Positions 1-46,011 of a DNA stretch of 64,000 bases are shown in pieces. Below the pieces are notes generated by a model that was given only the letters and a program-made list of their open reading frames with translations, made no database searches and was not told the DNA's origin. The translations under genes were made by a program, and so were the position numbers. Positions within the stretch are counted from its first letter, which is position 1; the number at the start of each line of letters is the position of its first letter. Origin of the DNA: Acidobacteriota bacterium (GTDB lineage Archaea > Nanobdellota > Nanobdellia > Woesearchaeales > DATGWN01); contig DATGWN010000047.1 of assembly GCA_035299465.1 (NCBI GenBank), positions 716 through 64,715 of the forward strand. Reading direction: 5' to 3'.

Positions 1-1167
1 ATCTGGAACAATGTCTTTATGCAGTACGACAAACAAGCCGATGGCACACTTGCGCCACTCAAGCAAAAATGCGTCGATACGGGGATGGGAGTCGAGAGAA
101 CAGCCCTTGCACTCCAAGGTAAAGAAAACGTGTATGAAACGGAAGCGTTTGAATCCGTGTTCAAAGTAATTGCAGCAAACGTAAATGAAAACATCGCAGT
201 AATAAGAACAAAACCTAATTTTCGAATTGTTGCAGACCACATCAGAACAGCAACATTCATGCTTGGCGATGAGAGAACAATATCCCCCTCAAATACAGAC
301 AGAGGATACATTCTACGACGACTCATTAGACGCACTATCAGAAATTTGCGCACAACAAATCTTACTTGTGCAGAACTAGCTGAAAAAATAATTGATGATT
401 ACGGCGAACAATATCCGACACTCAAACAAAAACACGCAACAATCATTGATGAACTAAAAAAAGAAGAAGAGAAATTTAAGAAAACGCTCGACAAAGGAGA
501 AAATCGTGTAATGACTCTCACAGCAAACCAAAATGCACAAAAAATAATCTCAGGTAAAGATGCATTTGATCTTTTCCAAAGTTACGGTTTCCCATTAGAA
601 ATGACAGTGGAAGCTGCAAAAGAGCGCGGATTCACAGTCGACTCATCAGAGTTCAAAAAACTCTTTGAAGAACACCAAGCAAAATCACGCACAGGAGCAG
701 AACAAAAATTCAAAGGCGGACTTGCAGACAACAGCGACCGAACTGTGCGACTGCATACTGCAACGCACTTACTCAATGAAGCTCTGCGCAAAGTCATCAG
801 CAAAGACATTGTCCAAAAGGGTTCAAATATCACGGCAGAGCGACTGCGATTCGACTTCAATCTTGACAGAAAATTGACGCCAGAGGAAGTCAAAGCCGTC
901 GAAGCGGAAGTCAACCGCGTTATACAGTTAGATCTTCCGATAACTATTGTTGAAATGTCGCCAGAAGAAGCGAAAGCAAAAGGCGCTCAGTCAGAATTTG
1001 GCGCGCGATATCCTCCAAAAGTCACCGTCTACAAAGTCGGCGATTACTCTATGGAAATCTGCATGGGTCCACACGTGAAGCACACTAAGGAAGTCGGCAC
1101 TTTCACTATTCAAAAAGAAGAATCATCTGCAGCAGGTATCAGACGCATCAAAGCGACGGTGGACTGA
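1..1167 (+). CDS. alaS: alanyl-tRNA synthetase, C-terminal part (5' end truncated by window edge)
   Basis: Frame is open from nt 1. 'WNNVFMQY...DTGMGVER' is the end of the AlaRS catalytic core, followed by an editing domain with HxxxH ('HTATHLL') and 'CMGPHV' zinc motifs. Confidence 0.85.
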   Translation: MWNNVFMQYDKQADGTLAPLKQKCVDTGMGVERTALALQGKENVYETEAFESVFKVIAANVNENIAVIRTKPNFRIVADHIRTATFMLGDERTISPSNTDRGYILRRLIRRTIRNLRTTNLTCAELAEKIIDDYGEQYPTLKQKHATIIDELKKEEEKFKKTLDKGENRVMTLTANQNAQKIISGKDAFDLFQSYGFPLEMTVEAAKERGFTVDSSEFKKLFEEHQAKSRTGAEQKFKGGLADNSDRTVRLHTATHLLNEALRKVISKDIVQKGSNITAERLRFDFNLDRKLTPEEVKAVEAEVNRVIQLDLPITIVEMSPEEAKAKGAQSEFGARYPPKVTVYKVGDYSMEICMGPHVKHTKEVGTFTIQKEESSAAGIRRIKATVD

Positions 1168-1805
1168 TGAAACTCACGTGGTACGGCCACAGTACATTTC
1201 TGATTGAAGATGGCCAAAAGATCATCATAGATCCTTGGCAGTTGGGCGATGACGTTCCAAAAGCTGACATAGTGCTTATAACACATCCGCACCCAGATCA
1301 TTTCTCGCTTCCTGACATCCAAAAAGTCAGAGGACAGGGCGCGCAGATTTATGCACATCCAGGCTGCAAAGGTATTGATGGCGATGTCGAGCACATCCTC
1401 CCTGGCCAAAAAATTATGGTCGGTGAAGTCGTCTTTGACGTATTGCCTGCGTATAACACAAATAAATTCCGCTCTCCTGGTGTCCACTTTCATCCTCAAG
1501 ATTCACAGTTTTGTGGTTTTTTGGTACAGACGCCTCACGCCCGATGGTATGTCGCTGGCGATACTGATAAGATCCCTGAAATGGATACTTTGAAAAATAT
1601 TGATGTCGCGCTTCTTCCTGTATCTGGAACGTATGTTATGACTGCGGCAGAAGCAGTTGACGCCTCGCACACTGTGAAAGCAAAACACGCAGTTCCTGCA
1701 CATTATGGCAGCATTGTTGGCACAAAAGAAGATGGAGAATTTTTTGTAAATAATTGTTTTGGGAAAGGAGTCTTACTCAAAAAAGGCGAGCCTTACCAAT
1801 TTTAG
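1167..1805 (+). CDS. MBL-fold metallo-hydrolase
   Basis: 'THPHPDH' HxHxDH beta-lactamase-fold motif. Start overlaps the alaS stop (ATGA). Confidence 0.8.
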   Translation: MKLTWYGHSTFLIEDGQKIIIDPWQLGDDVPKADIVLITHPHPDHFSLPDIQKVRGQGAQIYAHPGCKGIDGDVEHILPGQKIMVGEVVFDVLPAYNTNKFRSPGVHFHPQDSQFCGFLVQTPHARWYVAGDTDKIPEMDTLKNIDVALLPVSGTYVMTAAEAVDASHTVKAKHAVPAHYGSIVGTKEDGEFFVNNCFGKGVLLKKGEPYQF

Positions 1806-2074
1806 GAGAATTTGCCCCAATCTCTTTTTATGTTCCAATTATATGGAGGTTTCCAATCTATAAACGTCGGTTCAAATCGTTTCTCGGTTTCGCGCACGTC
1901 AATGACACATTCAGGTAATATGGCAGTGTAGTGCGGGCCACTAGGACTGTCAAAATCAAAGAATTGGAACCGTTCTTTTCCATCAGCATATTGCTTTGTT
2001 TTCATAATTCCAAAATCGAGCGGCGCACAGTGTCGAGAAACTATTCCCTTCTTAGAGGCATATGTCACCAACAA
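1802..2074 (-). CDS. small hypothetical protein
   Basis: Only ORF filling the 1805-2163 gap. Protein-like composition, no recognised motif. Confidence 0.3.
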   Translation of the reverse strand: MLVTYASKKGIVSRHCAPLDFGIMKTKQYADGKERFQFFDFDSPSGPHYTAILPECVIDVRETEKRFEPTFIDWKPPYNWNIKRDWGKFS

Positions 2075-2162
2075 TATATTTTTGCCGCGTATTGCTCGTT
2101 CGACATTATTTTTGTCCGTCTGCCGTAGTTGGCAAGGACATTATTAAATATACTGAAATAAC

Positions 2163-3059
2163 TTGGTTCTCGACGTTATATTTTATAAACCGTTGCCGTA
2201 TCCATCGGTCATGCATTTACCTAAATTCCCATATTTGGAAAAAGCGGCAAAAGGCATTCTCAGATATGCACCGCATTGGCGAAACGCACCTACATATACT
2301 GAACGTGTGCGCCACATGGCACATCTACAGGAGCTTCGCGAATATATCTCATCCGATGTGCCACTGACTTTCGCTGAATTCGGCCCAGGCGGGATTGTTC
2401 AAAAAGTCCTTGATTCTCCACAGATTCAAAAGTTGCCTAAGCGAGCACAAAGACTAGCTGAAGCCACTGCTCGCCACTTCACTATGCGAGATTTTACGGT
2501 GTTCGAATCTGATGAAATACGACATCTTTTCGCAAAACAAATCGAATATATGTATATCATCGATAGATCCACACGCGTGCTTGACGCACTTCGCGCAAAA
2601 CAATACGACAGAACAGTCTTGCTCGACGTCGATTTGGAGCGTCAGATTCTCACAGACATGCCTTTGGTCGATGTCGCAATTTCATATAACGTAATCGCCC
2701 GAAACGATGAACAGGCGAAAGTTCTCTGCAATATAGCTCACAGCGTCAATAAGGGCGGCGTCTTGTCTATTGAAGACGATTCGTTGCAGCTGCCGCTCAA
2801 TAATTATGGCTACGACAAAATCGGCAGATGGTTGTATGTCAGAAACGAAATCGTTGGTCCGACGCATACTTCGGTTACCGGCAAACTGGACAAAGCCGTG
2901 CGCTTCAAACCGGCAGTAGGCCTGAACCACATAGATGCAGCTGCAAAGGCGGCGTTGCATGCTTCGGCAAAAGATGGACCGGTTCGAGTGGATATAGAGC
3001 ACTTAAATGACGAATCTCGGTTAGCTTTAGAAAAAATAGAAAGAAAAAGAAAAAATTAA
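2163..3059 (+). CDS. hypothetical protein (weak class I methyltransferase-like 'EFGPGG' motif)
   Basis: 298-aa ORF. Start codon uncertain. Ends convergently, overlapping the next gene. Confidence 0.5.
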   Translation: MVLDVIFYKPLPYPSVMHLPKFPYLEKAAKGILRYAPHWRNAPTYTERVRHMAHLQELREYISSDVPLTFAEFGPGGIVQKVLDSPQIQKLPKRAQRLAEATARHFTMRDFTVFESDEIRHLFAKQIEYMYIIDRSTRVLDALRAKQYDRTVLLDVDLERQILTDMPLVDVAISYNVIARNDEQAKVLCNIAHSVNKGGVLSIEDDSLQLPLNNYGYDKIGRWLYVRNEIVGPTHTSVTGKLDKAVRFKPAVGLNHIDAAAKAALHASAKDGPVRVDIEHLNDESRLALEKIERKRKN

Positions 3060-3247
3060 ATCATTTCTCCGATATCAGTTTCTTCTTCTGTTATCAAAGA
3101 AAGATCGTTTTGTGACGTTGTTGTCTGCGGTGTTTCAAGCGGTGCCGTCTTTGGAGGATTCTGAGAATCTTCCTGAGGTGCCGATGCACACGCAGTGAGC
3201 AACAAGACGCTGATCAACAGCAAGGCAATGATAGCTTTAGTTCTCAT
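3056..3247 (-). CDS. small secreted lipoprotein-like protein
   Basis: Signal peptide with lipobox-like 'LLTAC'. Start overlaps the stop of the upstream gene by 1 nt. Confidence 0.45.
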   Translation of the reverse strand: MRTKAIIALLLISVLLLTACASAPQEDSQNPPKTAPLETPQTTTSQNDLSLITEEETDIGEMI

Positions 3248-6176: not shown

Positions 6177-8309
6177 TTAGCGCGCAGTCATGAATGATTT
6201 TTGCATCGTTTGATTAGACATATTGGATAAAATCGACACTAACTGATTATAGACTGCGTCGCTGTCGAGTGCTTTTACATGAAGATCCGTATTGAGAGCA
6301 TCAGTGCACGTACCGTTGAAAATCGTGTAGAGTCTTGCGCCTTGTAATTTACTTGAGTCCTCGGTTACTACACCGTCTCCGAACGTGCCATCCATTACGC
6401 ATCCGGTATGTGCAATGACATACCATTCTCCGGTGACGGGAGGCAATTTACGCAAGAACGCACTTCCTGCAGAAAGATCGTCACATTCTTTTACCGCACC
6501 AAATAGTGGACAATAGGACTGCACTGTGCCGTTTACTCCGCCAAACGGTGAATTAAGCGTAATGAATGCCTTTACATCTTCGTCTCCGAACAGCGATTCA
6601 TATGAACGAGCAACCAATCCGCCCATGGAATGCGCTACTACGATTACTTGCGGTGCGCCACTTTGTTGTTTGATGTCTTTGATGATTTCTCTTAAGCGCA
6701 ATGCGTAATTCTCTATTCGTTCCGACTTTTGAATCGTTACGTCATATGAACCAAGATTGTACACAGTCTGGTAATAGAAACTTGCTCGCACGGTAAAAGG
6801 AATTTGGACAGGCACGCCACTAGCCGAATATTCGCCCGCATTCACATATCCTTCGTCTTCTAGCTTTTGCTGGATGTGAGCGAAGGCCTGCATAGAGACC
6901 AATGGGTCATTATCTTCGGTGAATGCGTGACCATGTATGAATACTATTGGAGGTTTTTGGTGTTGGCATTTGCCACAAGTGTCTTTTACGCAACAATTAG
7001 CGCTAGCATCCAGCAAATTCACAGGCGCGGACGGTTCGAATGGAGGAAAGGTGACTGTCATCACTTGCGCAATCGATGGCATGTTAATGTTGACAGTCTG
7101 CTTTACATCGCAGTAACTTGGGACTTGTGCAAGAAATGTCACAGACATATCTGGTTCGCTCAAAAGGGAAACTTGCGATTCATTGAGTATTGTGACATTT
7201 GTCAGATTCGCGCTCACGACGTACAGATTATGATCTTTTATTTTTTGAATCCGGTCACAGATTGTTTGGATTGTTTGGTTGGTTGAAGGCGGAGTTATTG
7301 TCAACGAAGTATTTACGAGTGAGATGTATGACTCAAGTTGATCCAGACGCTGCATTGTTGCGGCTTTTTTCTCAAGATATAATAGCGTTTTATTTGTAAG
7401 ATACGACGTTGCCCCTGTATAGATGACTTGCGTACGGGGAGGATCAGCGTCTGTGGTCATGGATAACACGTCAGACAATTTGCCGATAGCTAATGATACT
7501 TGCGCTGCATCCGTATCATGCGTTTGCGCGTATGTGATGAATTCAACGACCGATGTATTTGACAAAAATGTAATCGCATCCAGCTGCATATGTGCCAACT
7601 GATCTCTGCTGGCATTCGTGAACAACAACAAGGGCGCAAGCAACATGTTTGGTTCAAATGTGCGTATCAATGACTCGGAGAGATTATATTGCTGAGTATT
7701 CCAATACGCTGCCGCTGTCATGATTTGTGCGCGCGTGAATGTCGGAGCGGGTATTTCCGTTATCGGCCAAATATCCTTGAGTGTAAGGTAGTACTCGTAT
7801 TCGTCAAGATTGTCTTTAGCTTGTGTGAGTGCAGTCTGCAGTTCGTCTTTTCGTTCCAGAATTTTCTTATCTGTTTCATTAAGAGAGTATTCTAGGACAA
7901 TGAGTGTTGTTCGTTCGCGCGGAACACCGGTCGCAGGACAGAGCGATGACGGAAGCACGGCGCAACTAGTTCGAAAGTGAGTCATATATTGACCGAAACC
8001 GAACTCAGGTGCGGTGATATTGAACGTGTGCGATTCTTGCGGATTCGTTGAAGAGTAATTATAGACATCGTCGACCGAATAGTTACACACGGCGGAGCAA
8101 GTAGCGTATGTAAAAAAACGAGTGTCAATCGTAATCGGTACCGTTTGATTTGCGAGCACTTTTGCAACGAAAGGAGTAGGACTAACTTTGACTAGCACTT
8201 CGTCGTCGAGCGTGAAATGCACTTGTGCGAAAAGCAAGATGAGCAAAATGCCAATAAGTGCCGCTGCACTCATGATTGCGATTAGCCAAAAAAGGGTCTT
8301 GCGTTTCAT
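6177..8309 (-). CDS. secreted/membrane-anchored alpha/beta-hydrolase (lipase/esterase-like) with large N-x-S/T-rich N-terminal domain
   Basis: N-terminal TM/signal 'LFWLIAIMSAAALIGILLILLFA'. C-terminal 'VVAHSMGG' GxSxG nucleophile elbow and 'FIHGH' oxyanion region (PGAP1/DUF676-like lipase fold). More than 20 N-glycosylation sequons. Confidence 0.7.
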   Translation of the reverse strand: MKRKTLFWLIAIMSAAALIGILLILLFAQVHFTLDDEVLVKVSPTPFVAKVLANQTVPITIDTRFFTYATCSAVCNYSVDDVYNYSSTNPQESHTFNITAPEFGFGQYMTHFRTSCAVLPSSLCPATGVPRERTTLIVLEYSLNETDKKILERKDELQTALTQAKDNLDEYEYYLTLKDIWPITEIPAPTFTRAQIMTAAAYWNTQQYNLSESLIRTFEPNMLLAPLLLFTNASRDQLAHMQLDAITFLSNTSVVEFITYAQTHDTDAAQVSLAIGKLSDVLSMTTDADPPRTQVIYTGATSYLTNKTLLYLEKKAATMQRLDQLESYISLVNTSLTITPPSTNQTIQTICDRIQKIKDHNLYVVSANLTNVTILNESQVSLLSEPDMSVTFLAQVPSYCDVKQTVNINMPSIAQVMTVTFPPFEPSAPVNLLDASANCCVKDTCGKCQHQKPPIVFIHGHAFTEDNDPLVSMQAFAHIQQKLEDEGYVNAGEYSASGVPVQIPFTVRASFYYQTVYNLGSYDVTIQKSERIENYALRLREIIKDIKQQSGAPQVIVVAHSMGGLVARSYESLFGDEDVKAFITLNSPFGGVNGTVQSYCPLFGAVKECDDLSAGSAFLRKLPPVTGEWYVIAHTGCVMDGTFGDGVVTEDSSKLQGARLYTIFNGTCTDALNTDLHVKALDSDAVYNQLVSILSNMSNQTMQKSFMTAR

Positions 8310-8358: not shown

Positions 8359-9720
8359 TTACATGTCAATATAATTCTTGACTGGAGTATTTTTTTGAGC
8401 CATTCCTCGGAACTGTAGAGATGCCTTCTTGCACAGATCATGATAATTAGAATATAGCCACATGTTGACGTCCAAATTCTGCTCGTGGCCAAATGAGAGC
8501 TGCTTTGAGAGCTGGGTGAGTGTAGTTAGTCGACTTTCATCCGTTTGCGATTGGAATTTTGCCTTGAACTGGGCGGTGCGTGCGTATGTGCGGATACCTT
8601 CGTGCTTTGATACTTGCGCAAGCAGACGAGGATAGAATGGTCCAGACATACTTGGTCCAACAATATATTCCAAAACAGGGGACGCATGCTCAAGAATGTA
8701 TGAAGTACGCATTTTGTCGTTTTTAACGCGGGAGAAATATGATTGCACTTGCTCAAGCATCGCGTACGTGCTTGTATGTTCCATAGAGCGCAGCCGGGAT
8801 TTTCGGTGCTCAAGTACGGTTTCACTAGGGACGTAGATGCCAGCACTTACGAGTTGATTGAGCGCATCTGGCGCGTCAGCACAGATAATCTTCAAAAGAG
8901 GAATTGTGAAATCAGGTGCTGGCCCGAAAGTGACTGCGACGTTTTCTTTGGTGTGAGGATTATAGATGAACTTCCAATCTGCCCCGTTAATCTTAAGTGC
9001 GATTTCATTTACATGCACGTCAATCTCGTTGGACATATCAATTGTGAGATATCGTGATAATGCACCTAATCGTGAACGCAGCGCAAGTGCGTCTGTTGTC
9101 ATTTGAGATACGTTTTGAGTCGTCAACAGATACTCTTTTGGTTCAATAGCCATTCTCTCAAATTCTCGTTTGAGGTTTCGAACTCCTGTGACTGTTTTTT
9201 TTGGCGTATCAAGTGTAATCGATAGTTTGTATGGACCTGCTGTGAATTCCGATGGTTTGTCAACAATATTTTCCAACAATAGGCCATTTCGCGCTTTTTT
9301 TATTTTACCGACGATAGCTTTTCGCACGCCAAACGTTGAAATAATCGCGTCCGCTTTGCGATACAACTCTTTTACAAACGGCAGTAAATATTGATCTTCA
9401 CTGTTTGCGAAGTCTGCGTTGATTTGCTGTTGAGATAGTATTAGGACATCGCCATTAAATGGGTTTTGCGCTGAGCTGCCAATGATTCCGACTCGTGGTG
9501 GAACTATATCTGGTTTTTGTAAGGATTCCAAGCCTTTTCGCATGTGTTCAATTTCATCGCCTTGGACTTCGTACGATAATTTCGGTTTGAGGTACAAAAC
9601 GGATTGTTCGACTGCGCCAGCACTTTTAAGAAACTCCTCATCCAGACTACTAATTACAGGACGATCACGAGATATTTCTTTGAGTGCGGCAAGCTCCATT
9701 AATCGGCGGAACTGAGTCAT
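8359..9720 (-). CDS. hypothetical protein (last gene of AAA/vWA operon)
   Basis: 453 aa. Start overlaps the upstream stop (ATGA). No recognised domain. Confidence 0.7.
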   Translation of the reverse strand: MTQFRRLMELAALKEISRDRPVISSLDEEFLKSAGAVEQSVLYLKPKLSYEVQGDEIEHMRKGLESLQKPDIVPPRVGIIGSSAQNPFNGDVLILSQQQINADFANSEDQYLLPFVKELYRKADAIISTFGVRKAIVGKIKKARNGLLLENIVDKPSEFTAGPYKLSITLDTPKKTVTGVRNLKREFERMAIEPKEYLLTTQNVSQMTTDALALRSRLGALSRYLTIDMSNEIDVHVNEIALKINGADWKFIYNPHTKENVAVTFGPAPDFTIPLLKIICADAPDALNQLVSAGIYVPSETVLEHRKSRLRSMEHTSTYAMLEQVQSYFSRVKNDKMRTSYILEHASPVLEYIVGPSMSGPFYPRLLAQVSKHEGIRTYARTAQFKAKFQSQTDESRLTTLTQLSKQLSFGHEQNLDVNMWLYSNYHDLCKKASLQFRGMAQKNTPVKNYIDM

Positions 9721-11450
9721 AGTGTTTTTGCTTGTTCTCCGATTTTCATTGCAAGGAACGAACGCATTTTCTCTTGCTCAGCTAACATCTTTTCGACTTG
9801 CTTTGCTTTTTCATCCTGTTGGCGTGCGTCCATTGCTGCGAGCGTCTTCAAATATGCGTCAAATTTGGCAATGATTTTCTCTGCAGATAATTCGCCGATG
9901 CTGTCCAACCTGAATTTGAGTTTTTTGTCAAAGGACCACGTCAACATTTCAGGTGATACTACCATGTTGCCGGATCGAATGTCATCAAATACGTGTCCGA
10001 TTTGACGGTTATTCAATTCAATGGACTTAAGGTATTCACCAAGGTGTAACCATTGTTGTTGCGGCATATCAATAGGCAGACCTTTAGTAAGCGATAATTT
10101 GGAATAGTCCGCGAATTCTTGTGGCGTTGCCAAAGGCGACATCACGAACGTCTGTCCAAAGATTCTACTCTTTGTTGCTTTGTCGATGCCGTCCGAATAG
10201 TTTGCATCCATAATAAAGCCGACCTTACCTATCTTTGGAATCGAACTTCCGTCAAACATTTTCAGATACGTCGAGAAGATCTTCTGTTCTTCTTGCGTCA
10301 TACCGCTTGCTCGGTTTCCAAAAATTGTATCTACATCAGCGATATACTGAACAACGATACCCGGGAAGCCTCGGATTTTTGCGGCGAATTTATCTAACTC
10401 TACTGCTGACTGATTTTGATAGTGCGAAATATAATCAGTTGCACTGTGAATTCCTACCCAACACGGGATCTGTGCATCTTTGCACATTTGAGCAATCCAT
10501 TGCAAATGCGCGTTTGCAAATACAGTTTTACCACAACCAGGCGGGCCGTCGATGTATGTGCACATAGGCACTTTCTCGACGTTCTTTGCAACCGAGTGAT
10601 CGTATAGGGCAATCTTGAGCAGCCATTGCTGAACGTCCGCTTTCATTTTTGCGTTGCCGATGATATCATCAGGCATCAAGCGCATGACACGTTCATCTAT
10701 TTCGACGCGATTATCTTTTGTCGAAAATGCGCCATCTTTGATCGTGAAGCGATCGTACTTGAGTGTGAGCCCTTCGATGTCGCGTGCTTTTGCCACGTCC
10801 TTGTGTGTCGACCATCTGAACTGGTTTATCCATGACGTGAATGTGTAGGCAAGGACGTCTTTGAGCGCTTCGTCGCTGGGCTTTTCGCCATCGGCTCTTA
10901 CTTTTGCAAACCACTTAGTCATATCGGCTTGCGTTTGCTTTACAAGATTTTGTGTCAGGGTTTCATCGTCGCGCGAGAAACTCATGTCTGCGTCGAATGC
11001 ATAGATGTCATTTGTCGCAGAGAGAGGTCGATTGAGCATAGATAGGCCAACGTGGCCAGCGAATGCTAATGCGTATTTGTTGGCAAGCTGTACGCTTGTC
11101 ACATAGTCCGCGCGTGTCGCAGAGGGCTTATCCTGTGTCGTTTGATCGTGTGTCGCAGTCAATCTCAATTCTAACGAGCCGACGTCCATGTTTTTTCGAA
11201 GCGTTTGCGTGGATTGCTGAAAAATACCTAATGCTTGTTCGTATACGTCGAGGATTTGTACTTGTGGAACGGTTATACGTGTACCATTTGCCAGCTCTTT
11301 GTTGACAAGTGCATATGCGCTTTGATAGACAGCAGCCTTAGGCATTGCAAGTTGCTGCAAGCCTTGAGCTGCATTGGGATGGGCAATATATTTGCGGATG
11401 CTTTCTAAACCGTCTTGTACATTTTTTGTGATGTCTTCATATTTTGTCAT
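9717..11450 (-). CDS. classical-clade AAA ATPase with ~300-aa novel N-terminal region and degenerate Walker B
   Basis: Walker A 'GPPGCGKT' (as in Cdc48 D2). 'VVQYIADVDTIFG' aligns to 'IIFIDEVDALTG' with DE->AD. SRH-like 'FIMDANYSDGIDKATKSRIF'. Confidence 0.8.
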   Translation of the reverse strand: MTKYEDITKNVQDGLESIRKYIAHPNAAQGLQQLAMPKAAVYQSAYALVNKELANGTRITVPQVQILDVYEQALGIFQQSTQTLRKNMDVGSLELRLTATHDQTTQDKPSATRADYVTSVQLANKYALAFAGHVGLSMLNRPLSATNDIYAFDADMSFSRDDETLTQNLVKQTQADMTKWFAKVRADGEKPSDEALKDVLAYTFTSWINQFRWSTHKDVAKARDIEGLTLKYDRFTIKDGAFSTKDNRVEIDERVMRLMPDDIIGNAKMKADVQQWLLKIALYDHSVAKNVEKVPMCTYIDGPPGCGKTVFANAHLQWIAQMCKDAQIPCWVGIHSATDYISHYQNQSAVELDKFAAKIRGFPGIVVQYIADVDTIFGNRASGMTQEEQKIFSTYLKMFDGSSIPKIGKVGFIMDANYSDGIDKATKSRIFGQTFVMSPLATPQEFADYSKLSLTKGLPIDMPQQQWLHLGEYLKSIELNNRQIGHVFDDIRSGNMVVSPEMLTWSFDKKLKFRLDSIGELSAEKIIAKFDAYLKTLAAMDARQQDEKAKQVEKMLAEQEKMRSFLAMKIGEQAKTL

Positions 11451-11466
11451 AGTAATACCTTTTCAG

Positions 11467-12603
11467 TCATTTCTCAAATAAATACGACTGAGCGCCAAGC
11501 AAATGCTCTGCGACGGTGCCTGCGTATTTTGCTTTTGTCACGGAAAACAAATCATTCCACTTCATTCGATGGATTTTTTGGAATGTGCGACCTTGCCGAA
11601 CTTCTGCGTTTGGCGCGTATGCGTAATCTCGCGAACATCGCAACAAGTCAAATTCTTTATCCTTGTCGATCAACGCTAGACTCACCGGGAATGGCTTGAA
11701 GCCTTGTGGTGATGTGAAATATTGATTATCAAATGGTCCAACCAGGAGTCGTGTCATGTGCACTGGATGGATCGTCGGATACTCTTCGTCGATTTTTTGT
11801 AACATGTACCATGCATCATTGTTTTCACTAAAATCGAACTCTCGCGCAAATTTATCTGAAAGTGTGTCTACGCCTTCACCCTCTTTTTTTACAAATGGCT
11901 CATCTCCTTCTGCAGGGACGTCTTCCCACAAATCCATGACGTATATCTGAAACATTCCTCTCGCGCGGCTATATTGGATTGACGATACGGACCACAGTGT
12001 CTCAACACCAAGATCAATCTCTTTTTTGACGATGATAGAATCTTTTTTTTGCATATCGGCCGGACCGATAAGGAGTTGATCGCCAAGATACTCGAAGTAA
12101 TTTCGCTGCAGCGCAGTCTGGTATATTTTATCAGCGTGCTGTGCGACTTCAGTCATGTCGACTTCATCTGAACTGAGCAAATCCTGCAGTTTTAGCGCTA
12201 ATGCGTCGTACTGCGGCAGACTATTGAGGAACTCGTCGCGCCGCTCCTTATGGATAATTATATCGGTTATCGACGAATACCAAGGAAGGCCTGATTCAGT
12301 AGAAATACCAAGTTCGCGAAGATGCGATCTGTTCTTGGCAGGGGTGGGATCGGTTGTGATGCTGCGCATCAAATCATACATGTTTCTGACTCGTTGCAAT
12401 TGAGTGACCAAAATATCTGAAGTGTGATTGAACGATGGCAATCGTGACCAGTCCCAAGAAGATGCGCGTGCGACGGCTTCTACTGACTCTTTTCGGAATA
12501 ACTGTTCGTTTTTTAGATTATGGCACAAAACTGAAAGTGATGCATCAAGTGAATCAAGATACCGCTCTTTTTCAGATCCAGTTATGATATGAACTTCTTT
12601 CAT
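11467..12603 (-). CDS. hypothetical protein
   Basis: 378 aa, no recognised motif. Same strand, 16-nt spacing to the next gene. Confidence 0.7.
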   Translation of the reverse strand: MKEVHIITGSEKERYLDSLDASLSVLCHNLKNEQLFRKESVEAVARASSWDWSRLPSFNHTSDILVTQLQRVRNMYDLMRSITTDPTPAKNRSHLRELGISTESGLPWYSSITDIIIHKERRDEFLNSLPQYDALALKLQDLLSSDEVDMTEVAQHADKIYQTALQRNYFEYLGDQLLIGPADMQKKDSIIVKKEIDLGVETLWSVSSIQYSRARGMFQIYVMDLWEDVPAEGDEPFVKKEGEGVDTLSDKFAREFDFSENNDAWYMLQKIDEEYPTIHPVHMTRLLVGPFDNQYFTSPQGFKPFPVSLALIDKDKEFDLLRCSRDYAYAPNAEVRQGRTFQKIHRMKWNDLFSVTKAKYAGTVAEHLLGAQSYLFEK

Positions 12604-12683: not shown

Positions 12684-13940
12684 TTAGTGAGTTGTGTAGT
12701 GTCCGCCAGTCTCTGTACGGATAGCTTCCATGATGCCCTTGATAGACTTTTGAGCTTCTGCATATTGCATGTCCTTTTCGAGGACTTCGGACTCAAATTC
12801 CAACAAACGGGATCGAATCTGTCGACCATCTTCAACACTATACACCGGAGTTTCATAGATCGTTCTGATCTTTTGTTCCACGTGTTCGAGCAATCGCTGG
12901 TTGATGTCAAGCATTGCACGCGCGGAGCTTCCAAGTGTAATCAATCCGTCTGCAAGTCTGTCGGCAAGTTGTCCTTGGCTTGCGAGTCGTGCTGAGATCT
13001 TGAAGTTCTCCATGACGTACGTCTTCATGTCCATGTACATATCTTTGAGCTTGTTGAATTGCGTGACATATTGTTCTGCTTGCGCCATAGAGACGTCTGA
13101 CGCGACAATACTGCCTTTGATTGTGTCGACACTGTGTGCGACTGAGAGGACTCGTCTTCGTAGATCGGATACTTTGCCGTCTGCGCCGACTTTACCATCG
13201 ACAAGGTCATACTTCTTATCCAAAGTCTCTTGCGCTTTTTGTGCCAGAGCTTTGACTGCCCCGACATCGTTTGCATTCTTTGCTTTTTCGATTTCAGCGT
13301 GAAGCATAGTAAGTGTCTCGTCAAAGAACGATAATTCAGTCATATACTTAGTAACTTCTGCAGTGGCTTCAGCCATTTCGTCATCCGACACATAGCCTTC
13401 TTGGAGTTTGTCGATGAGACTTCTTTCAAGGAAGCGCTTGTTGTTGATAGCGCGAGTTCGCGTTTCGAGAACTTTTGCAAGTCCTTCTTCTGCGCGTTGG
13501 TAAGCAGTTGTGACTACTTCGTCCATTTTCTGAGCGATTGTGTCCAGTGATTCTGCATTTCTTGTGTATGCATTTACTTCTATTTCGTCGGCCTTGTCTT
13601 GGTTCTTCCAGACATGAGTGTACCAGCCGAGTCGGAATCTTTCATGTAATTTGAATGAGCCGTTTTTAGACAACAAGTCAGCGAATTCTGCGTTGTGTAC
13701 GCCGTACTGTCGTCCTAGTTTACTAAGTGAGAGTGTGATCTGCGCCATTTCTTCTCGGATTTGTGCAGCTTCATCTTTTTGCGTGTCTTGTTTAGGTGAT
13801 GCGCTGACGCGAGTAGGCGTTGCCTGTCGTGTTGCTGGTCTACGCAACGTTTGGGAAATAGTAGATGCTGGAGCGGCTGTGTATGTACCGATCTTCTGTA
13901 ATCTTTGTTCAAGTTCGCTTGAAATTGCTGTTTGGCTCAT
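12684..13940 (-). CDS. long coiled-coil protein
   Basis: 418 aa, heptad-rich and charged. S/T/P-rich N-terminus 'RRPATRQATPTRVSASPKQ'. Confidence 0.7.
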   Translation of the reverse strand: MSQTAISSELEQRLQKIGTYTAAPASTISQTLRRPATRQATPTRVSASPKQDTQKDEAAQIREEMAQITLSLSKLGRQYGVHNAEFADLLSKNGSFKLHERFRLGWYTHVWKNQDKADEIEVNAYTRNAESLDTIAQKMDEVVTTAYQRAEEGLAKVLETRTRAINNKRFLERSLIDKLQEGYVSDDEMAEATAEVTKYMTELSFFDETLTMLHAEIEKAKNANDVGAVKALAQKAQETLDKKYDLVDGKVGADGKVSDLRRRVLSVAHSVDTIKGSIVASDVSMAQAEQYVTQFNKLKDMYMDMKTYVMENFKISARLASQGQLADRLADGLITLGSSARAMLDINQRLLEHVEQKIRTIYETPVYSVEDGRQIRSRLLEFESEVLEKDMQYAEAQKSIKGIMEAIRTETGGHYTTH

Positions 13941-14054: not shown

Positions 14055-15440
14055 TTATAAACTGTCTATGGACTTGAGTTCTCCTAGTGTTTTTGTAAGG
14101 TCTAGGATCATGTTTCCTGCCAATTTTTTGCTATCTATTAGCATGACACGAGTCTTTGGACCTGCAGCCTTGCCTATGGCTTTGACATTTTCTTTTGCTT
14201 GACCGTCTCCATCTACCAAAAAGATACGTAGCAAAACATTTGGCATGGACGCGAAGTACTCGGCTTCTTGTACGGCGTCGGACAAACTGTCGGGCGCACC
14301 GTCTGAAACAAGATACGCCATCGATAATCGTCGATCGGTCAATGTTTCGCGCAACCATTTGAGTCCAAGATGCATCGGCGTGCCTTCGTTAGGAGTGCTG
14401 AGTTTGAGGTATTCTGCGTGTGTTAGACTGGTGACGCGATTGTGATTGAATACTGAGAGCGATACTTTGTTTTTGCTGCTGAGTTGTCGCATCATTGCAG
14501 CTGCGGCACCACCCATTTGTTGTGCGATGTCCCACCGTGTTTTCGTATCCGTTGCTCGATAATCCATGCTGCCGCTATAGTCAACTGTGATGGCCGTATC
14601 TAAGCCGAGTTCTCGATACGTCGGTGTTTTGTATTTTGCCACAACGAAATCTTCAATGATTGGTCGACTTCGTCCAGCAATTTTCATATTGACATTTGTC
14701 GCAAACCAGTCGACGTTTGGCAATTCTGACATATCTTCCATGTGAGTATAGCGGTCGAAGATACCGTTAAATGCAGCGATGGCTTTCTCTTTGATGCCTG
14801 ATTTTCCTGCAACAGAAAGACCTTTGAGCGTTTCGTCCAATAGACTATCTTGCAATCGCGAGACTAATTTATCGTCGTTAAAAGTGAGCGAACCGTATCT
14901 ATCCTTGGAGAACACACCTGTGTCAACTAGATGCTCGCGGATTTTTTCTTGCGCTATTCTTGTGACATCGGCATTTTGGATTTCCTGCTTTTTCTGCTCG
15001 ATTGCGGCAAGTTCTTCTTGCGTCTTTGCTTCGTATGTTGCAGCGACGTCTTGGACGGCTTGCGATTCAGATTGCTGTACCTGCGTTACTGTTTGCTCAA
15101 GCGTTTGTGCAGCAGTTTTCTTGGCATCGATCTCGTTTTTTGTGCCTACAATACTTTGCGCTTTAGAGCCGATACTGGAGAGTCCTTGCGTAATTTCGAG
15201 CGCTTGCAATCGTTTCTCGTATACATGCGTGGCATACTGCGAAATGAGGTCGTTGGTCTTTCGTTCATACCAACCTGTGAATATGCGTTTTCCGACAGAA
15301 AGCTTGAATTTTTCCGTTCTACTTAAGTTCAAGTATTCGTGGACTTTTTCTCGGAATTGAACGTCTCCTCTATATCGTGATCCAAATGAACGAATGTACG
15401 CTTCCTTTGTGTATCTGAGCGGGACTTTTAATTGCGTCAT
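14055..15440 (-). CDS. von Willebrand factor A (vWA) domain protein with N-terminal coiled-coil region
   Basis: C-terminal vWA with MIDAS 'DYSGSMD' (DxSxS), then T and 'SDGAPD'. N-terminal 300 aa Q/E/A-rich coiled coil. Start overlaps the upstream stop (ATGA). Confidence 0.8.
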   Translation of the reverse strand: MTQLKVPLRYTKEAYIRSFGSRYRGDVQFREKVHEYLNLSRTEKFKLSVGKRIFTGWYERKTNDLISQYATHVYEKRLQALEITQGLSSIGSKAQSIVGTKNEIDAKKTAAQTLEQTVTQVQQSESQAVQDVAATYEAKTQEELAAIEQKKQEIQNADVTRIAQEKIREHLVDTGVFSKDRYGSLTFNDDKLVSRLQDSLLDETLKGLSVAGKSGIKEKAIAAFNGIFDRYTHMEDMSELPNVDWFATNVNMKIAGRSRPIIEDFVVAKYKTPTYRELGLDTAITVDYSGSMDYRATDTKTRWDIAQQMGGAAAAMMRQLSSKNKVSLSVFNHNRVTSLTHAEYLKLSTPNEGTPMHLGLKWLRETLTDRRLSMAYLVSDGAPDSLSDAVQEAEYFASMPNVLLRIFLVDGDGQAKENVKAIGKAAGPKTRVMLIDSKKLAGNMILDLTKTLGELKSIDSL

Positions 15441-16327
15441 GAGTCACCACCCTTATATCCGAATATAGAGAGAAAACCATAATAGGTACGTTTGATGAAG
15501 CCTTTCTTCTTCTTGACGGGGCCTGCTTTTTTGACAATCTTTTCCAGATTTCCTGTGCTTGCAAGTTGCTCGGCAGTGGCATTTGTTTTCAGTAATTCAA
15601 GTCCCAAAGTAATGTCAGCAGGATCACTTGTTTGGTTTGAGTTTGATTCGAGGTTTGATTCTTGCACCTGCGCTGTTTGTGCTGCATACTGGTCGACGTT
15701 CGTTTCGGGAGTTGATTGAGATTGCGGGCTTTGCTGCGGACTTTGATCTGCGGCTTTTTTTTGCTTTTCGTCCAGCGGTTCCTCTAACATTGCATCCAGC
15801 TCGAGAATCTTGGCTAGACCTTCTTCGCCACCTATCTCTTTGAGCTGTGCAGCTACTTTTGCACGAGATTCGTCTAATTGGCCTTGTGCACAAAGATATT
15901 CTTGCGTCGATTTGTCGTACGCATTTAGTGTTGCGTCAAGTTGTGCTTTTTGTTCCTGCAATTTTGCAGTGTATTGATTTTTTATTGCGAGTATCTCTGC
16001 TTCGCGCTTTTCTTGCAGCACTCTTTTTTTCTCGGCTTCTTCTGCGGAGAGAGCGTCAAGTGCTTTCATCTGTTGATAGCCGTGACTTTTTGCAATTTGC
16101 TGAGAAATCTGACTGACAATACTTTCTGAACTGAGAATACTGTCAACTGTGCGCTGTGCATCAGCGCCTCGTTTCCACGCACTAAACATAGCTTCGTTCA
16201 ATGCAGCTTCAAGCCGTTTTAGATCGACTGGCGGAGTGCGGAATAGTTCACACTGTGCAAGCCTGAACTCGTCAAGTGACATCCTAACCTTTAAGTGGGA
16301 TCTTGCACTTGGAATGCTGCATCGCAT
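15437..16327 (-). CDS. Q/E-rich coiled-coil protein with polybasic C-terminus
   Basis: 296 aa. 'KKAGPVKKKKGFIKRTYYGF' tail. Overlaps the upstream gene by 44 nt. Confidence 0.65.
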   Translation of the reverse strand: MRCSIPSARSHLKVRMSLDEFRLAQCELFRTPPVDLKRLEAALNEAMFSAWKRGADAQRTVDSILSSESIVSQISQQIAKSHGYQQMKALDALSAEEAEKKRVLQEKREAEILAIKNQYTAKLQEQKAQLDATLNAYDKSTQEYLCAQGQLDESRAKVAAQLKEIGGEEGLAKILELDAMLEEPLDEKQKKAADQSPQQSPQSQSTPETNVDQYAAQTAQVQESNLESNSNQTSDPADITLGLELLKTNATAEQLASTGNLEKIVKKAGPVKKKKGFIKRTYYGFLSIFGYKGGDS

Positions 16328-18575
16328 CCATATAGAATTGTGCAGTCTCTTTGAGTTGTGCTATGCTGAGCTGATGGAAATTAGCTTCCGTATCAAAGAA
16401 CATACCTGCGAGTGGATATTCCTTCTTGAGGATATGAGTTTCTCGTGCGTTCTGGTTTTTCACTGCTGCTTGCAATTCTTCAAATGGTCGTACAAGCTCA
16501 GTAACGTCAGCATATGTTTTTTGAAGCTGTGTTTCAAATCGTTTTGCGATTCCAGCAGATACTGATTCTTTACTTGCAATGTCCTTGAATTGGTTGCACC
16601 ACCAGACATCTGCTTCTTGTGTGAAGACGGATTCAATTTGACCAGTCACGAGTTTTTCAATCGCTTCGTAATTTGCGATTTCGGCTGCTCGATCGTCGCA
16701 CGCAAGTCTACTTCTTGTCGCGAACAAGACACCGTTCGTTGCATAGGGCATCGTTACGATGTGTGGTCGCTTTTCGTAGAAGAGTCTGTCAATGAATAGT
16801 TGTGATCGCGCTGCATACAATGCGTCAAGTTTGGAACGGTTTCCTAAGATTATGCTCGTGCTGTCTTCGCTTCGGATCTCACGCATTTTGATATAAAGTG
16901 CGTCGATGGATCTTTCAAGCAACGATGGCATGGAAACAGTTTTGACAATGTCGATTGGTTGCATGATGTGTACGTCCGGGATTTCTACTGCAGATGGTTC
17001 TTCACGCAAGCCGTGAATACTTGCACGAGTAATCTTATGGCTAACGTCAACATCTTGAGGATAGTGCATCGGGAAGAACAATACTCTGTCCTTTATTGGA
17101 GCAGTAAAGCAGTCGACTTCGTTTGCGTTCTTGAAAATTGCAGCGTGTGCAGGATTCTCGAATCTGATCTGGTCAATCTTGACTCTGTTATTTGAAAGGG
17201 CGAATCGAAGTGTGTCTTTTTCTGCGTCTGGGATCAAGTGGGCTTCGTCAATGATGAGAACACCGTTGTTTGTTCGCACGAGTGCACCATACTGTACGCC
17301 TTCTGGGTCGTAACCGTTGGATTTTGCATTTGCGTCAGTTGGCATCTTATAGCCGACAAGGTTGAATTGTCTGACACCTGGTGTACCGTTGAGAAGCTCG
17401 ACACCAAAACCTGGTCCGAATGCCTTGACATCGACGTTAATTTTTGAAGGATGTTTTGGCTTAAAGATACCTGTTGCGCGATATTTACCAGTGTTATCAT
17501 GCGCGATCATCGTCTCTGCACAAGGTATTACTTTTCGTGCGAAGCTTGGATCGATGAGTGAGAATGGGGACGTCTGACATTGCGAGCCTTCAGCAACGAA
17601 TTGGATTTCACGTTGCTGTGCAATAGCTGCAAGATCTTCACATATAGTAGTCTTTCCACCGCCCGCTGGACCATAGAAAACCATGTCTTTGTTCATCAAG
17701 ATTCCAGTTGCAACATCGTTTGCGAATGCAGTTTCCACTTTTGTCTTTGGGAACACGCGTGCAAACGCTTCTTCGCGAACTACTTCTTCGATATCAGCTG
17801 GTTCTTCTTGCCCGTGACTTGATACTTGCAATACGCCATGTGCTTCGTCAATTGGGAGCGTATACATTGTTTCTGAACCACGTTTTGGTTTGACAGCAAT
17901 TGCGATGATCCCTTTGTCCTTATCGTATTCTACGATGCGGCCAGTTGTATTTGCTTTGATTTTTTTCTTTTCTCGTCCTTCTGAAACTTCAATTGCTTCT
18001 GTGACTCGAATCAAATGTCCAAGGTCTGGTTTTGCAACAACGCCTGGATGCAAATCATATGCCACCGGTACTTGATCATCGGATGTGAATTCAACATGAT
18101 TCCAAGGTACTGTGACTCTGTATTTATTGCCCACTTTTGTGGATTCGTCGACTTGGCCGTCGAGCTTTTTTACCGGATCGTCGTATTCAACTACGATGCC
18201 TGATGAGCCTGATTTTTTTGGTGAATCGCCGTATTCATACACGCGACCAACCATATTTTCCAAATCCCATTTCTTGTATGGACCTACGACGCGAACTGCT
18301 GCCGTCGTTTTGTCAGATTTCGATAATGATGTCAGATAATCGTATTTGTCTGCAGCTTCTTTCAATTCTGATGCTTTTACTGTCTCTGCTTTGACTGCTG
18401 GAATCCATTGTCCGAGCATATCTGGTGATAACTGGGATCGAGCCTCGTCTCTGGCTTTCTTGAGTCGTTCGACAGTAATCAATGCAAGATATTCGGATGA
18501 TGTTTTAGGAACTACGCCCATATCGATTAAATCTTGCGCTGTCTTTACTCGAGAATATTTATCTGCTAATGCCAT
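16284..18575 (-). CDS. MoxR/ChlI-like (helix-2-insert clade) AAA+ ATPase with ~280-aa N-terminal repeat domain and C-terminal extension
   Basis: Walker A 'GPAGGGKTT'. Walker B/sensor 'LIIDEAHLIPDAEKDTLRFALSNNRVKIDQIRFENPAHAAIFKNANEVD' matches the DExNLL...L..LE.g.v.i.R...PA.F.L.A..NP pattern of Mg-chelatase/MoxR AAA+. N-terminus has duplicated 'GR(V/I)xEYD' modules. Confidence 0.8.
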   Translation of the reverse strand: MALADKYSRVKTAQDLIDMGVVPKTSSEYLALITVERLKKARDEARSQLSPDMLGQWIPAVKAETVKASELKEAADKYDYLTSLSKSDKTTAAVRVVGPYKKWDLENMVGRVYEYGDSPKKSGSSGIVVEYDDPVKKLDGQVDESTKVGNKYRVTVPWNHVEFTSDDQVPVAYDLHPGVVAKPDLGHLIRVTEAIEVSEGREKKKIKANTTGRIVEYDKDKGIIAIAVKPKRGSETMYTLPIDEAHGVLQVSSHGQEEPADIEEVVREEAFARVFPKTKVETAFANDVATGILMNKDMVFYGPAGGGKTTICEDLAAIAQQREIQFVAEGSQCQTSPFSLIDPSFARKVIPCAETMIAHDNTGKYRATGIFKPKHPSKINVDVKAFGPGFGVELLNGTPGVRQFNLVGYKMPTDANAKSNGYDPEGVQYGALVRTNNGVLIIDEAHLIPDAEKDTLRFALSNNRVKIDQIRFENPAHAAIFKNANEVDCFTAPIKDRVLFFPMHYPQDVDVSHKITRASIHGLREEPSAVEIPDVHIMQPIDIVKTVSMPSLLERSIDALYIKMREIRSEDSTSIILGNRSKLDALYAARSQLFIDRLFYEKRPHIVTMPYATNGVLFATRSRLACDDRAAEIANYEAIEKLVTGQIESVFTQEADVWWCNQFKDIASKESVSAGIAKRFETQLQKTYADVTELVRPFEELQAAVKNQNARETHILKKEYPLAGMFFDTEANFHQLSIAQLKETAQFYMDAMQHSKCKIPLKG

Positions 18576-24424: not shown

Positions 24425-25996
24425 TCATAGTACTCCTGAGAAGAGCAGGTTTAGTACCCATCTCAGAACAATAAAGAGAGTCATCGATATCGCCCAGAAA
24501 ATAGGCATATCACGCACAGAACCAAACGCTTTTCCAGTTCTGATTGCGGAAATGATAATAGTCGACATTGTCGTCGTCAAGAACAACATCACTAAGCAGA
24601 AAATAAAGAAGTCGGATTGGCTGACTGCGTCAGTGGACAATGACAGCGAAATTCCCGCCGCGTTGCCACCGCTTCCAGCACTTTGCGCGGCATTCATCTT
24701 CGCGCCGACTTCTTGGACAATCGTGAGTAATTGTGTTGCAACGGCAAACAGACCTGGCGCAGCTACGACTACTGCGAATACAATGAAGATAACGTAGGAT
24801 GTGACGTTTGCAGACATACTTTGCTTACGCAAGTCGATATCTTCCAGGTTTAGTGCAATGTTTTCTAATAAGTCGCCGATTTCACTACCTGCATCCATGC
24901 CTTCAACAATGAGACCAACCGAGCGGCGAATAATCTTCGAATCGTACTTTCTGCCAAAGTCTTGCAATGCAGAGGAAAGATCTTGACCGACCATCGCTTT
25001 TTTTGCGATGATCTCGATCTCCTTAGATAGTATGCCAAATTGCGGACGTGCACCACGCCATAATGCTTGGTCAATAGTCATCCCAGCTCTAATATTTGCC
25101 GCAACAACGTGCAAGAATTCAGGGAAGTGCTTTTCGACGGCATCTTTTCTCTGCGCAATGCGTAAGTCAAGGAATGCGAATGTCAATAAGGATAACACGA
25201 ATGTGCCGACTGGATAGACGAGCGCTGCAAAGAACATAAGTACACTGATATAATAGAAGATGCCACCAAGGCCTTCATATTTCGTATAAATGAAATAAAG
25301 ATAGATCAGTGAACAGATGACAATCGAAAATTTGTTTATCTTTGCAAACATTTCTCGATATGAAAGCGAAAAACCTGCAGTCTCTATGTATGCGTTTAGT
25401 TTGCGCTTGAATTCTGCATCAGCGCTTTTCTTATGAACGGCAGGTTTGTGGTCTTTGGACGTTACGATGTTCTTAAAATTAGTGAGAAACTCGACAATCG
25501 TATTCTGCTTTTTTGCTTCTTTCGGTGGCGACGGCACTTGCGGCTTTGGTTGCTCTTTTCTTTCGAACACTTTTGCTATTGTGTTTGATAGCGATGTAGA
25601 AATATTCTGAGTTGTCTGAGAAATTCTTTGAGATATCTTTTGCGATAATGAGATGTGTGGCGATATTTGGGAAACTGGCTGCGACTGTTCGTTTTGCACG
25701 CTTGCTTGCACTTTTTGTTCTTTCGCGTCAGCTTTTTGCTTTTCCTTTTCTACAATGAGTCTTTTTGCAGACTCAAGTTTGTCTTCGATGTCTTGTGATT
25801 TTGTTTCTTTTACTGGGGCAGACTTTTCAAGTATAGCTTTTTTTGCAGATTCAATCTTTGCAAATGACTGATCCAATTCCTTTTTTTTCTCTGTCTGCGA
25901 TTTGAGAATCTTTTGCTTTGCTGCGTCGATCTTAGCAGCCATAGACTGGTTCACTTCCTGTTGCAATGCCGTTTTCGCAGTCTGTTTTTTTGCCAT
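24425..25996 (-). CDS. T2SSF-domain pilus platform protein (TadC/FlaJ half) with ~200-aa K/Q/S-rich N-terminal extension
   Basis: C-terminal T2SSF domain ('ALWRGARPQFGILSKEIEIIAKKA...') with TM helices. N-terminus low-complexity and coiled-coil-like. Confidence 0.75.
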   Translation of the reverse strand: MAKKQTAKTALQQEVNQSMAAKIDAAKQKILKSQTEKKKELDQSFAKIESAKKAILEKSAPVKETKSQDIEDKLESAKRLIVEKEKQKADAKEQKVQASVQNEQSQPVSQISPHISLSQKISQRISQTTQNISTSLSNTIAKVFERKEQPKPQVPSPPKEAKKQNTIVEFLTNFKNIVTSKDHKPAVHKKSADAEFKRKLNAYIETAGFSLSYREMFAKINKFSIVICSLIYLYFIYTKYEGLGGIFYYISVLMFFAALVYPVGTFVLSLLTFAFLDLRIAQRKDAVEKHFPEFLHVVAANIRAGMTIDQALWRGARPQFGILSKEIEIIAKKAMVGQDLSSALQDFGRKYDSKIIRRSVGLIVEGMDAGSEIGDLLENIALNLEDIDLRKQSMSANVTSYVIFIVFAVVVAAPGLFAVATQLLTIVQEVGAKMNAAQSAGSGGNAAGISLSLSTDAVSQSDFFIFCLVMLFLTTTMSTIIISAIRTGKAFGSVRDMPIFWAISMTLFIVLRWVLNLLFSGVL

Positions 25997-26811: not shown

Positions 26812-26814
26812 AGT

Positions 26815-45907: not shown

Positions 45908-46011
45908 GACCCTGTAGCTTAGCCTGGTGGAGCGCCGGTCTTATATGACCGCGATTCATACGCGCTGTCGAAGACAGCCGGTGGTCCCGAGTTCAAATCT
46001 CGGCAGGGTCA
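45908..46011 (+). tRNA. intron-containing tRNA, mature anticodon UAU (tRNA-Ile(UAU)); 30-nt intron at canonical 37/38
   Basis: Acceptor GACCCUG/CAGGGUC+A73. D-arm GCUU-AGCCUGGUG-GAGC. Anticodon stem CCGGU/GCCGG. T-arm CCGAG-UUCAAAU-CUCGG. 37 nt lie between the anticodon-stem halves, giving a 7-nt loop CUUAUA|A plus a 30-nt intron UGACC...AAGAC with an internal CGCG/CGCG hairpin and bulge-helix-bulge-like geometry. Confidence 0.6.

Follow-up and report, generated by a model that had tools for sequence, protein, structure and literature searches.

A classical-type AAA ATPase with Ala-Asp at the Walker B site, encoded in a seven-gene cassette of DPANN archaea

The AAA ATPases of the classical type (Cdc48/p97/VAT, Afg2/Drg1, spastin, katanin, Msp1/ATAD1, FIGNL1) carry Asp-Glu at the Walker B site, and the Asp of this pair is regarded as all but invariant across P-loop NTPases. 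One preprint (bioRxiv 10.1101/2022.06.23.497301) proposes that the Walker B Asp accepts a proton from the Walker A Ser/Thr. Two other described systems bear on the present case: the mitochondrial AAA translocase BCS1/BCS1L (6U1Y, 6UKO, 6SH3), which is reported to use ATP hydrolysis for substrate release (PMC7994207), and the green-type Rubisco activase (3T15), a working AAA+ protein. The subject of this report is g577, an ATPase encoded on the minus strand of a 64,000-nucleotide stretch of DNA (the window; positions 716 to 64,715 of contig DATGWN010000047.1), of which the classical AAA proteins are the best matches in both sequence and fold, but which has Ala-Asp at the Walker B site instead of Asp-Glu. 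The features of the gene, in positions of the window, are the following:

9717..11450, minus strand: g577, the AAA ATPase under study, 577 aa, ATG start (open reading frame and Pfam AAA), comprising an N-terminal helical domain of ~225 aa, a small beta unit (residues ~229-243), the AAA module (~296-500) and a C-terminal long helix (523-576)
10524..10547, minus strand: Walker A, GPPGCGKT, residues 302-309, with P304, G305, G307, K308 and T309 invariant in the family
10413..10427, minus strand: pore-loop-1 equivalent S-H-Y-Q-N, residues 342-346, with Y344 aligned to the Tyr of Afg2 SKYLGE (profile alignment)
10329..10358, minus strand: strand beta3 and the variant Walker B, IVVQYIADVD, residues 365-374 (alignments and AlphaFold2 model); D374, the counterpart of the last Asp of DExD, lies within it
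10338-10340, minus strand: codon of A371, at the Walker B Asp position
10335-10337, minus strand: codon of D372, at the Walker B Glu position
10200..10208, minus strand: D415-A416-N417; D415 is the final residue of strand beta4 and the candidate relocated carboxylate, and N417 is sensor 1
10164..10172, minus strand: K427-S428-R429, aligned with the two arginines (R-x-G-R) in the second region of homology (SRH) of classical AAA proteins (profile alignment, daTk.SRlfd against PALRrPGRFD)
10005..10007, minus strand: R482 in L-N-N-R-Q-I, invariant, at the start of the lid helix (481-493), candidate sensor-2 Arg

Membership of g577 in the classical AAA class, as given in the preliminary description, is borne out by a Pfam AAA (PF00004) match to residues 301-430 that scores 39.4 bits against a gathering cut-off of 21.2, by phmmer matches among all PDB chains to Afg2/Drg1, spastin, VAT, Cdc48, katanin and Msp1 (at low similarity, E 1e-5 to 4e-8), and by Foldseek, in which the best 50 matches of the AlphaFold2 model (mean predicted local distance difference test 74, predicted template modelling score 0.47) are all classical AAA proteins at probability 1.00, among them p97, spastin, Afg2 and katanin, with low TM scores because the full-length model was the query. 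Like the classical proteins, g577 has Walker A, an aromatic residue in pore loop 1, the sensor-1 Asn, two basic positions in the SRH (K427 and R429), the final Asp of the DExD type (D374) and FxxR after Walker B. It differs from them, besides the Walker B site, in an extra invariant Asp two residues before sensor 1 (DAN versus A/T-T-N), in its pore loop (H-Y-Q-N versus K-[YFW]-[VLI]-G), in the N-terminal helical domain (~225 aa) and long C-terminal helix, which are unrelated to the known domains of classical AAA proteins, and in being encoded within a seven-gene cassette. The first basic position of the SRH is Lys (K427) rather than Arg; the second is R429, which is likely to be the arginine finger, judging from its alignment. 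In the lid, relatives of g577 have LSGRD/E. R482 is a putative, unaligned counterpart of the classical G-x-S-G-A-D position; classical AAA proteins have Ala there (GAD) and g577 has an invariant Arg.

The register of the Walker B site was obtained in four ways that agree. In phmmer, QYIADVDTI of g577 is aligned to FIDEIDSI of Afg2 and FIDEVDSL of spastin; a profile of 16 family sequences places mYvaDaDtifqsR on iFIDEIDSIAPNR of Afg2; hhalign aligns the family motif to LLEDVDAAFLSR of BCS1 with 94% probability; and in the AlphaFold2 model strand beta3 spans residues 365-371, with A371 as its last residue. There is no alternative register with a Glu, as no Glu is within reach in IVVQYIADVDTIFG. 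A371 thus stands where the Walker B Asp would be, and D372 where the catalytic Glu would be. The Ala-Asp pair reported in the preliminary description therefore stands: alignment against solved AAA modules, one of the checks that it had asked for, upholds the register and places no Glu at the catalytic position. Its statement that Walker A and an SRH-like segment are intact also holds, given GPPGCGKT and the invariance of N417, S428 and R429 in the family. Wrong register was considered as an explanation and is ruled out by the agreement of these four results.

The family to which g577 belongs is rare. Only six relatives, with 34-38% identity, were found among 5.8 billion clustered proteins; a scan of 185,579 species genomes, which was pattern-based so that the family is probably undercounted, added 15 loci, nearly all of them in metagenome-assembled genomes (MAGs) of Woesearchaeota, Pacearchaeota or Nanoarchaeia; and about 30 full-length representatives are present among 1.84 billion proteins. 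Pairwise identity within the family is roughly 30-37%, but the motif Y-[VIAM]-[A/S]-D-x-D is found in 19 of 19 members. The first Walker B position is Ala in 18 of the 19 and Ser in the other, and D372 and D374 are invariant. Invariant or nearly so, alongside Walker A, are Y344, Q345 and N346 of the pore loop and D415, N417, S428, R429 and R482. Invariance of the residues of hydrolysis, as distinct from those of binding, in proteins that are only 30-37% identical implies strong purifying selection on the hydrolysis residues. Degenerate AAA domains usually lack such conservation of hydrolysis residues. On the evidence of these alignments, Ala-Asp is a fixed and selected feature of the family and not a lesion; a one-off mutation or a pseudogene is ruled out by the invariance of the motif in 19 members. 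The family is one of undescribed classical-type AAA ATPases of DPANN archaea (Woesearchaeales, Pacearchaeales), and no description of a natural AAA protein without the Walker B Asp was found in the searchable literature. The terminal part of a contig classified as 'Candidatus Uhrbacteria' (LCAH01000006.1, positions 10001-10831 of the extracted locus) holds a fragment with 39% identity to the family and the motif YVADADTIF; the presence of this fragment in a contig attributed to the Candidate Phyla Radiation is due either to horizontal transfer between ultrasmall symbionts or to a binning error.

The window itself is archaeal, although its source is named 'MAG TPA: Acidobacteriota bacterium' by NCBI. 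It encodes an EF-2 factor of the archaeal/eukaryal type (50851-53046) and a tRNA of 104 nt (45908-46011) that was found by Rfam and missed by ARAGORN and is presumably intron-bearing, and the homologous cassettes are all in DPANN (Woese-/Pacearchaeota) MAGs. The contig is probably that of a mis-binned DPANN archaeon.

The family is part of a much wider radiation in which Asp is the usual residue at the second Walker B position. A profile search of the 1.84 billion representatives yielded 775 relatives, of which 241 had E values no higher than 1e-10 and the best 155 were aligned to the hidden Markov model of the family. Among the 133 closest relatives, on which positions were counted, the two Walker B residues are ED (43), AD (27), PD (23), DD (17), DE (14) or SD (4); the second is nearly always Asp, and it is the first that varies. 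The distant relatives are all named 'hypothetical' or 'ATP-binding protein'. Those with ED are good classical AAA proteins by sequence comparison, matching Afg2 and Cdc48 with E of about 1e-24, and their vvlEDID falls on IFIDEID. BCS1 likewise has Asp at the second position: its deposited chains 6U1Y and 6UKO carry LVLLEDVDAAFLSR, which hhalign aligns column for column with YVADaDxIFxSR of the family (94% probability), the two having x-D-x-D-x-x-F-x-S-R in common. BCS1 differs from g577 in keeping an acid at the first position (Glu; EDVD) and T-T-N at sensor 1, and in having an N-terminal transmembrane helix and a BCS1-specific domain, whereas g577 has no transmembrane segment and no Pfam match to Bcs1_N (E threshold 0.1), and the best 60 PDB matches of g577 do not include BCS1. 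In a survey of 3136 P-loop catalytic sites, the catalytic residue of AAA+ proteins is given as [Glu/Asp] at D+1. Since Asp at the second position is common across the radiation and occurs in BCS1, the shortened 'Glu', on which the preliminary description had laid its weight, is not the remarkable part of the site; what is truly unusual is that the Walker B Asp has been lost, a point that it had mentioned and left unweighed. Rubisco activase was tried as a further precedent and was rejected as an aligned one: the deposited tobacco sequence (3T15) has CCLFINDLDAGAGR, and its FINDLDAG against the classical FIDEIDA, a non-acid followed by Asp, is a likeness seen by eye only, hhalign giving a probability of 1% that covers only the P-loop. 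Rubisco activase moreover differs from g577 in domain architecture, substrate and organisms.

The candidate replacement for the lost carboxylate is D415. Asp is present at this column in 56 of the 57 sequences that have no acid at the first Walker B position versus one of the 76 that have one, and column 415 is the top co-varying column of the ATPase module (mutual information 0.93, tied with K409). Sensor 1 accordingly reads D-A-N in the sequences without the acid and T-T-N or similar where the acid is present. In the AlphaFold2 model strand beta4 comprises residues 410-415 as assigned by DSSP, so that D415 is its last residue just as A371 ends beta3. The order of strands in the AAA+ sheet is 5-1-4-3-2, in which beta4 is flanked by the strands of Walker B and of the P-loop, and a carboxylate on D415 could thus plausibly reach Thr309 and the Mg-bound water. 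Within the clade that bears D415 the first Walker B position drifts (A, P, S, G, Q, H) and D415 and D372 are constant, a pattern that fits, without proving, a function that has moved and an old site that has been released. The clade without the acid at the first position probably has a rebuilt, catalytically active site. One of its branches is a sister family with the motif YWPDIDTA, found in a Planctomycetota contig (NZBC01000100.1, positions 10001-11668 of the extracted locus) with Pro-Asp at Walker B and D-A-N at sensor 1. Its operon differs, with two unknown proteins of ~355 aa upstream and a SACS/GHKL HATPase_c protein and proteins of 1304 and 344 aa downstream; the locus may be another uncharacterised multi-ATPase system. 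The fullest proposal is that throughout this clade, comprising the DPANN AD family and the Planctomycetota PD family, the Walker B Asp moved from beta3 to the end of beta4 while the motor remained driven by ATP, and that in DPANN archaea this motor powers a hitherto unrecognised cytoplasmic machine of seven proteins and two motors, four of the proteins having no detectable relatives; this is put forward tentatively, with somewhat less than even confidence.

The cassette consists of seven genes on the minus strand, of which g577 is the sixth, in the order g763-g296-g461 (module A) and g418-g378-g577-g453 (module B). The other six genes are the following:

16284..18575, minus strand: g763, module A, BchI/ChlI-like AAA+ protein with an N-terminal extension of ~290 aa (PDB profile 1G8P, the 38 kDa subunit of Mg-chelatase, E 1.7e-8)
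15437..16327, minus strand: g296, module A, small charged protein, probably coiled-coil, kept in 12 loci
14055..15440, minus strand: g461, module A, coiled-coil-like N-terminus and C-terminal vWA domain with a metal ion-dependent adhesion site (MIDAS) of D287-x-S289-x-S291, T354 and D380
12684..13940, minus strand: g418, module B, coiled-coil-like protein with scattered coiled-coil-type Pfam matches only, kept in 15 loci
11467..12603, minus strand: g378, module B, helical bundle and long-stranded beta domain, always directly upstream of the AAA gene
8359..9720, minus strand: g453, module B, unknown protein, kept in 16 loci, with a start that overlaps the stop of g577 (ATGA)

All seven genes are kept in about 15 Woese-/Pacearchaeota genomes, in which the modules are arranged as A-B, B-A or divergently, and no conserved flanking genes were found around the homologous cassettes. 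ATGA overlaps join g577 to g453 and g296 to g461, and none of the seven proteins has a transmembrane-like segment. The AAA+ protein g763 matches Pfam Mg_chelatase with 25.4 bits (cut-off 20.3) and has the canonical motifs GPAGGGKT (Walker A) and LIIDEA (Walker B, DE), the sensor-1 Asn and the DR motif. A second, apparently competent AAA+ had been noted beside g577 in the preliminary description; g763 does belong to the same cassette and is canonical, but it is four genes upstream rather than adjacent. The vWA assignment of g461 was made by sequence profile (TRAP vWA and archaeal VWA2, E about 3e-4), and its MIDAS residues D287, S289, S291, T354 and D380 are invariant in the family alignment. 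As a BchI-type AAA+ protein beside a vWA protein with a full MIDAS, module A resembles BchI/ChlI-BchD of Mg-chelatase and MoxR-vWA pairs such as NorQ/NorD and CbbQ/CbbO, and it has the two-part logic of the known AAA+/vWA chaperone pairs (PMC9976466). Module A differs from such pairs in the N-terminal extension (~290 aa) and Cys-rich insertion of g763, in the long coiled-coil-like N-terminus of g461, in the absence of a nearby gene for a chelatase H/CobN-like protein or metalloenzyme client, and in its coupling to a second AAA module of the classical type. The insertion in the g763 family, between Walker A and Walker B, has four conserved Cys (GCxxQCNP ... PPCPEC) and is probably a zinc site; in the window, residues ~326-360 of g763 retain a single aligned Cys (GSQCQTSP ... 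IPCAETM).

Less can be said of the other four proteins. No match to g453 was found in Pfam, PDB or NCBIfam, and none to g296 in Pfam or NCBIfam; searched by sequence against solved structures, g453, g378 and g418 gave nothing below E 0.1, and no recognisable relatives were found for the fold of g378, of which the AlphaFold2 model was built from an alignment of 6 sequences. Pfam matches of individual members of the g453, g418 and g378 families were considered and set aside as scattered and non-recurrent, TelA in two of 14 g418 members being probably coiled-coil noise. A remote homolog of g378 lies directly upstream of an ED-type AAA gene in another Woesearchaeota contig, and the pairing of g378 with an AAA protein is thus older than the g577 family. 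In one contig (JACRKG010000046.1) module B is present with no module A in the 10 kb to its left or right, so the two modules can be unlinked in some genomes.

The reading preferred here, which is given about even chances, is that g577 works within the cassette as an active AAA motor that forms a ring and has a rebuilt catalytic site. Under this proposal g577 would assemble into a ring and still hydrolyze ATP; D372 would be the carboxylate that activates water; D415 would take over from the lost Walker B Asp the task of holding the Mg-bound water and Thr309 of Walker A; and R429, acting in trans from the neighbouring subunit, together with N417 as sensor 1, would complete the site. Hydrolysis would drive the pore loop that bears Tyr344, so that a co-encoded partner (g418, g378 or g453) is threaded or remodelled, and g577 would act beside the pair formed by the BchI-like AAA+ protein and the vWA-MIDAS protein in a self-contained cytoplasmic cassette.

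Several points weigh against this proposal. In canonical AAA+ proteins, changes of the Walker B Glu to Asp or of the Asp to Ala usually cripple hydrolysis. The Walker B trap mutant of BCS1 reportedly alters the first residue (Glu of ED), which would make the first position important in BCS1; g577 has Ala there. In a neighbour-joining tree all of the sequences that bear D415 form one clade, so that the association of D415 with the missing acid rests on essentially one evolutionary event, and many further columns also separate the clades with and without D415. The AlphaFold2 models of g577 and g378 were both built on shallow alignments of 6-7 sequences, and four of the seven cassette proteins match nothing.

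The alternative that survives best, though it is considered doubtful, is that g577 binds ATP and hydrolyzes it very slowly or not at all, serving as a switch, a scaffold or a natural substrate trap while the BchI-like AAA+ protein does the work. The double change at Walker B, an absent Asp and a catalytic Glu shortened to Asp, speaks for this; a second AAA+ protein with canonical DE is always in the cassette; TorsinA offers a precedent of altered catalytic residues with very low activity; and the case for D415 as a substitute comes from a single clade. Against this, the residues of hydrolysis as distinct from binding (N417, R429, R482, D372 and D374), and the pore-loop Tyr with them, remain invariant at 30-37% identity, and in a large radiation the second position is as a rule Asp, as it also is in BCS1. 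The sister PD family, furthermore, occurs without a BchI-like partner; the variant site does not, then, depend on work being shared between two motors. The slow, regulatory or trap-like role suggested in the preliminary description is thus only partly supported, and the comparative data (Asp as the norm, invariant hydrolysis residues, the Asp on beta4) do not favour it.

As for the cassette, the best guess, weakly held, is that it is an accessory machine of two motors for protein remodelling or conflict rather than a part of core biology; the rarity of the family, the modular cassette with its variable flanks and the PD sister beside a GHKL-type ATPase together lean weakly in that direction, and the patchy occurrence of the cassette suggests the same. 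Searches of PADLOC (anti-phage defence) and PHROGs (phage families) gave only weak matches at the level of the P-loop (E no better than 3e-4), and a known defence or phage family was discarded as an identity for the cassette, PADLOC, PHROGs and NCBIfam having yielded nothing meaningful. No description of the cassette was found in the searchable literature, where 'AAA' in a Nanobdellota preprint is mostly the name of a clade. An improbable alternative is that the cassette is a core cellular machine in which a Vps4-like AAA protein takes apart, for instance, a filament of coiled-coil proteins or a system that remodels membranes. The two coiled-coil-like proteins beside a classical AAA protein with spastin, katanin and Msp1 among its nearest relatives of solved structure, the strict conservation of seven genes with translational coupling, and the lack of a match to PADLOC or PHROGs models would all be in keeping with this. 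Against it, the family is rare (six relatives, about 30 full-length representatives and 15 loci in the three collections described above); no flanking gene is conserved and the order of the modules varies; and neither a transmembrane or membrane-binding segment nor a signal of ESCRT-III or PspA was detected. Finally, that the register is wrong or that g577 is a decaying pseudo-ATPase with nothing unusual about it, which the low similarity to solved AAA proteins (E 1e-5 to 4e-8) might suggest, is very improbable when four approaches agree with no Glu within reach, the open reading frame is intact with a motif invariant in 19 members, and the family has about 50 invariant columns, those of the entire nucleotide pocket among them.

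Some of the neighbours of the cassettes deserve mention. Directly downstream of the cassette in the window (6177-8309, minus strand) is a gene for a 710-aa protein with an N-terminal transmembrane/signal segment, 14 Cys and a C-terminal alpha/beta-hydrolase domain of the PGAP1/lipase type (HSMGG), which does not accompany the cassette at other loci. A set of genes like those of a type IV pilus or archaellum (24425-29743, minus strand) is found some 6 kb away and includes the following:

26815-28449: T2SSE ATPase of the pilus/archaellum-like set
24425-25996: T2SSF platform protein of the same set

In a contig from farmland soil (positions 215-3114 of the extracted locus), an operon of a canonical MoxR (AAA_3/bpMoxR), DUF58 and BatA/vWA is immediately upstream of the gene for the BchI-like AAA+ protein of the cassette, so that two different AAA+/vWA systems are adjacent.

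The classical AAA class is well known; what is new is a member of it with a naturally re-architected Walker B site, encoded in an undescribed cassette of DPANN archaea. If the relocation is true, nature has rewired the acidic contact that is the most conserved one of P-loop NTPases, and a natural, conserved clade that lacks the Walker B Asp and has a candidate replacement on beta4 would provide a clean test of the proton-acceptor model. The case would also advise caution, in that AAA domains should not be called 'dead' from the DE motif alone, and for annotation it means that a contig labelled Acidobacteriota is archaeal. The genomes of DPANN archaea are tiny, and a strictly conserved cassette of seven genes, two of them for different ATPase motors and four for orphan proteins, is therefore a notable investment, one that could relate to conflict between symbiont and host, to defence or to protein quality control.

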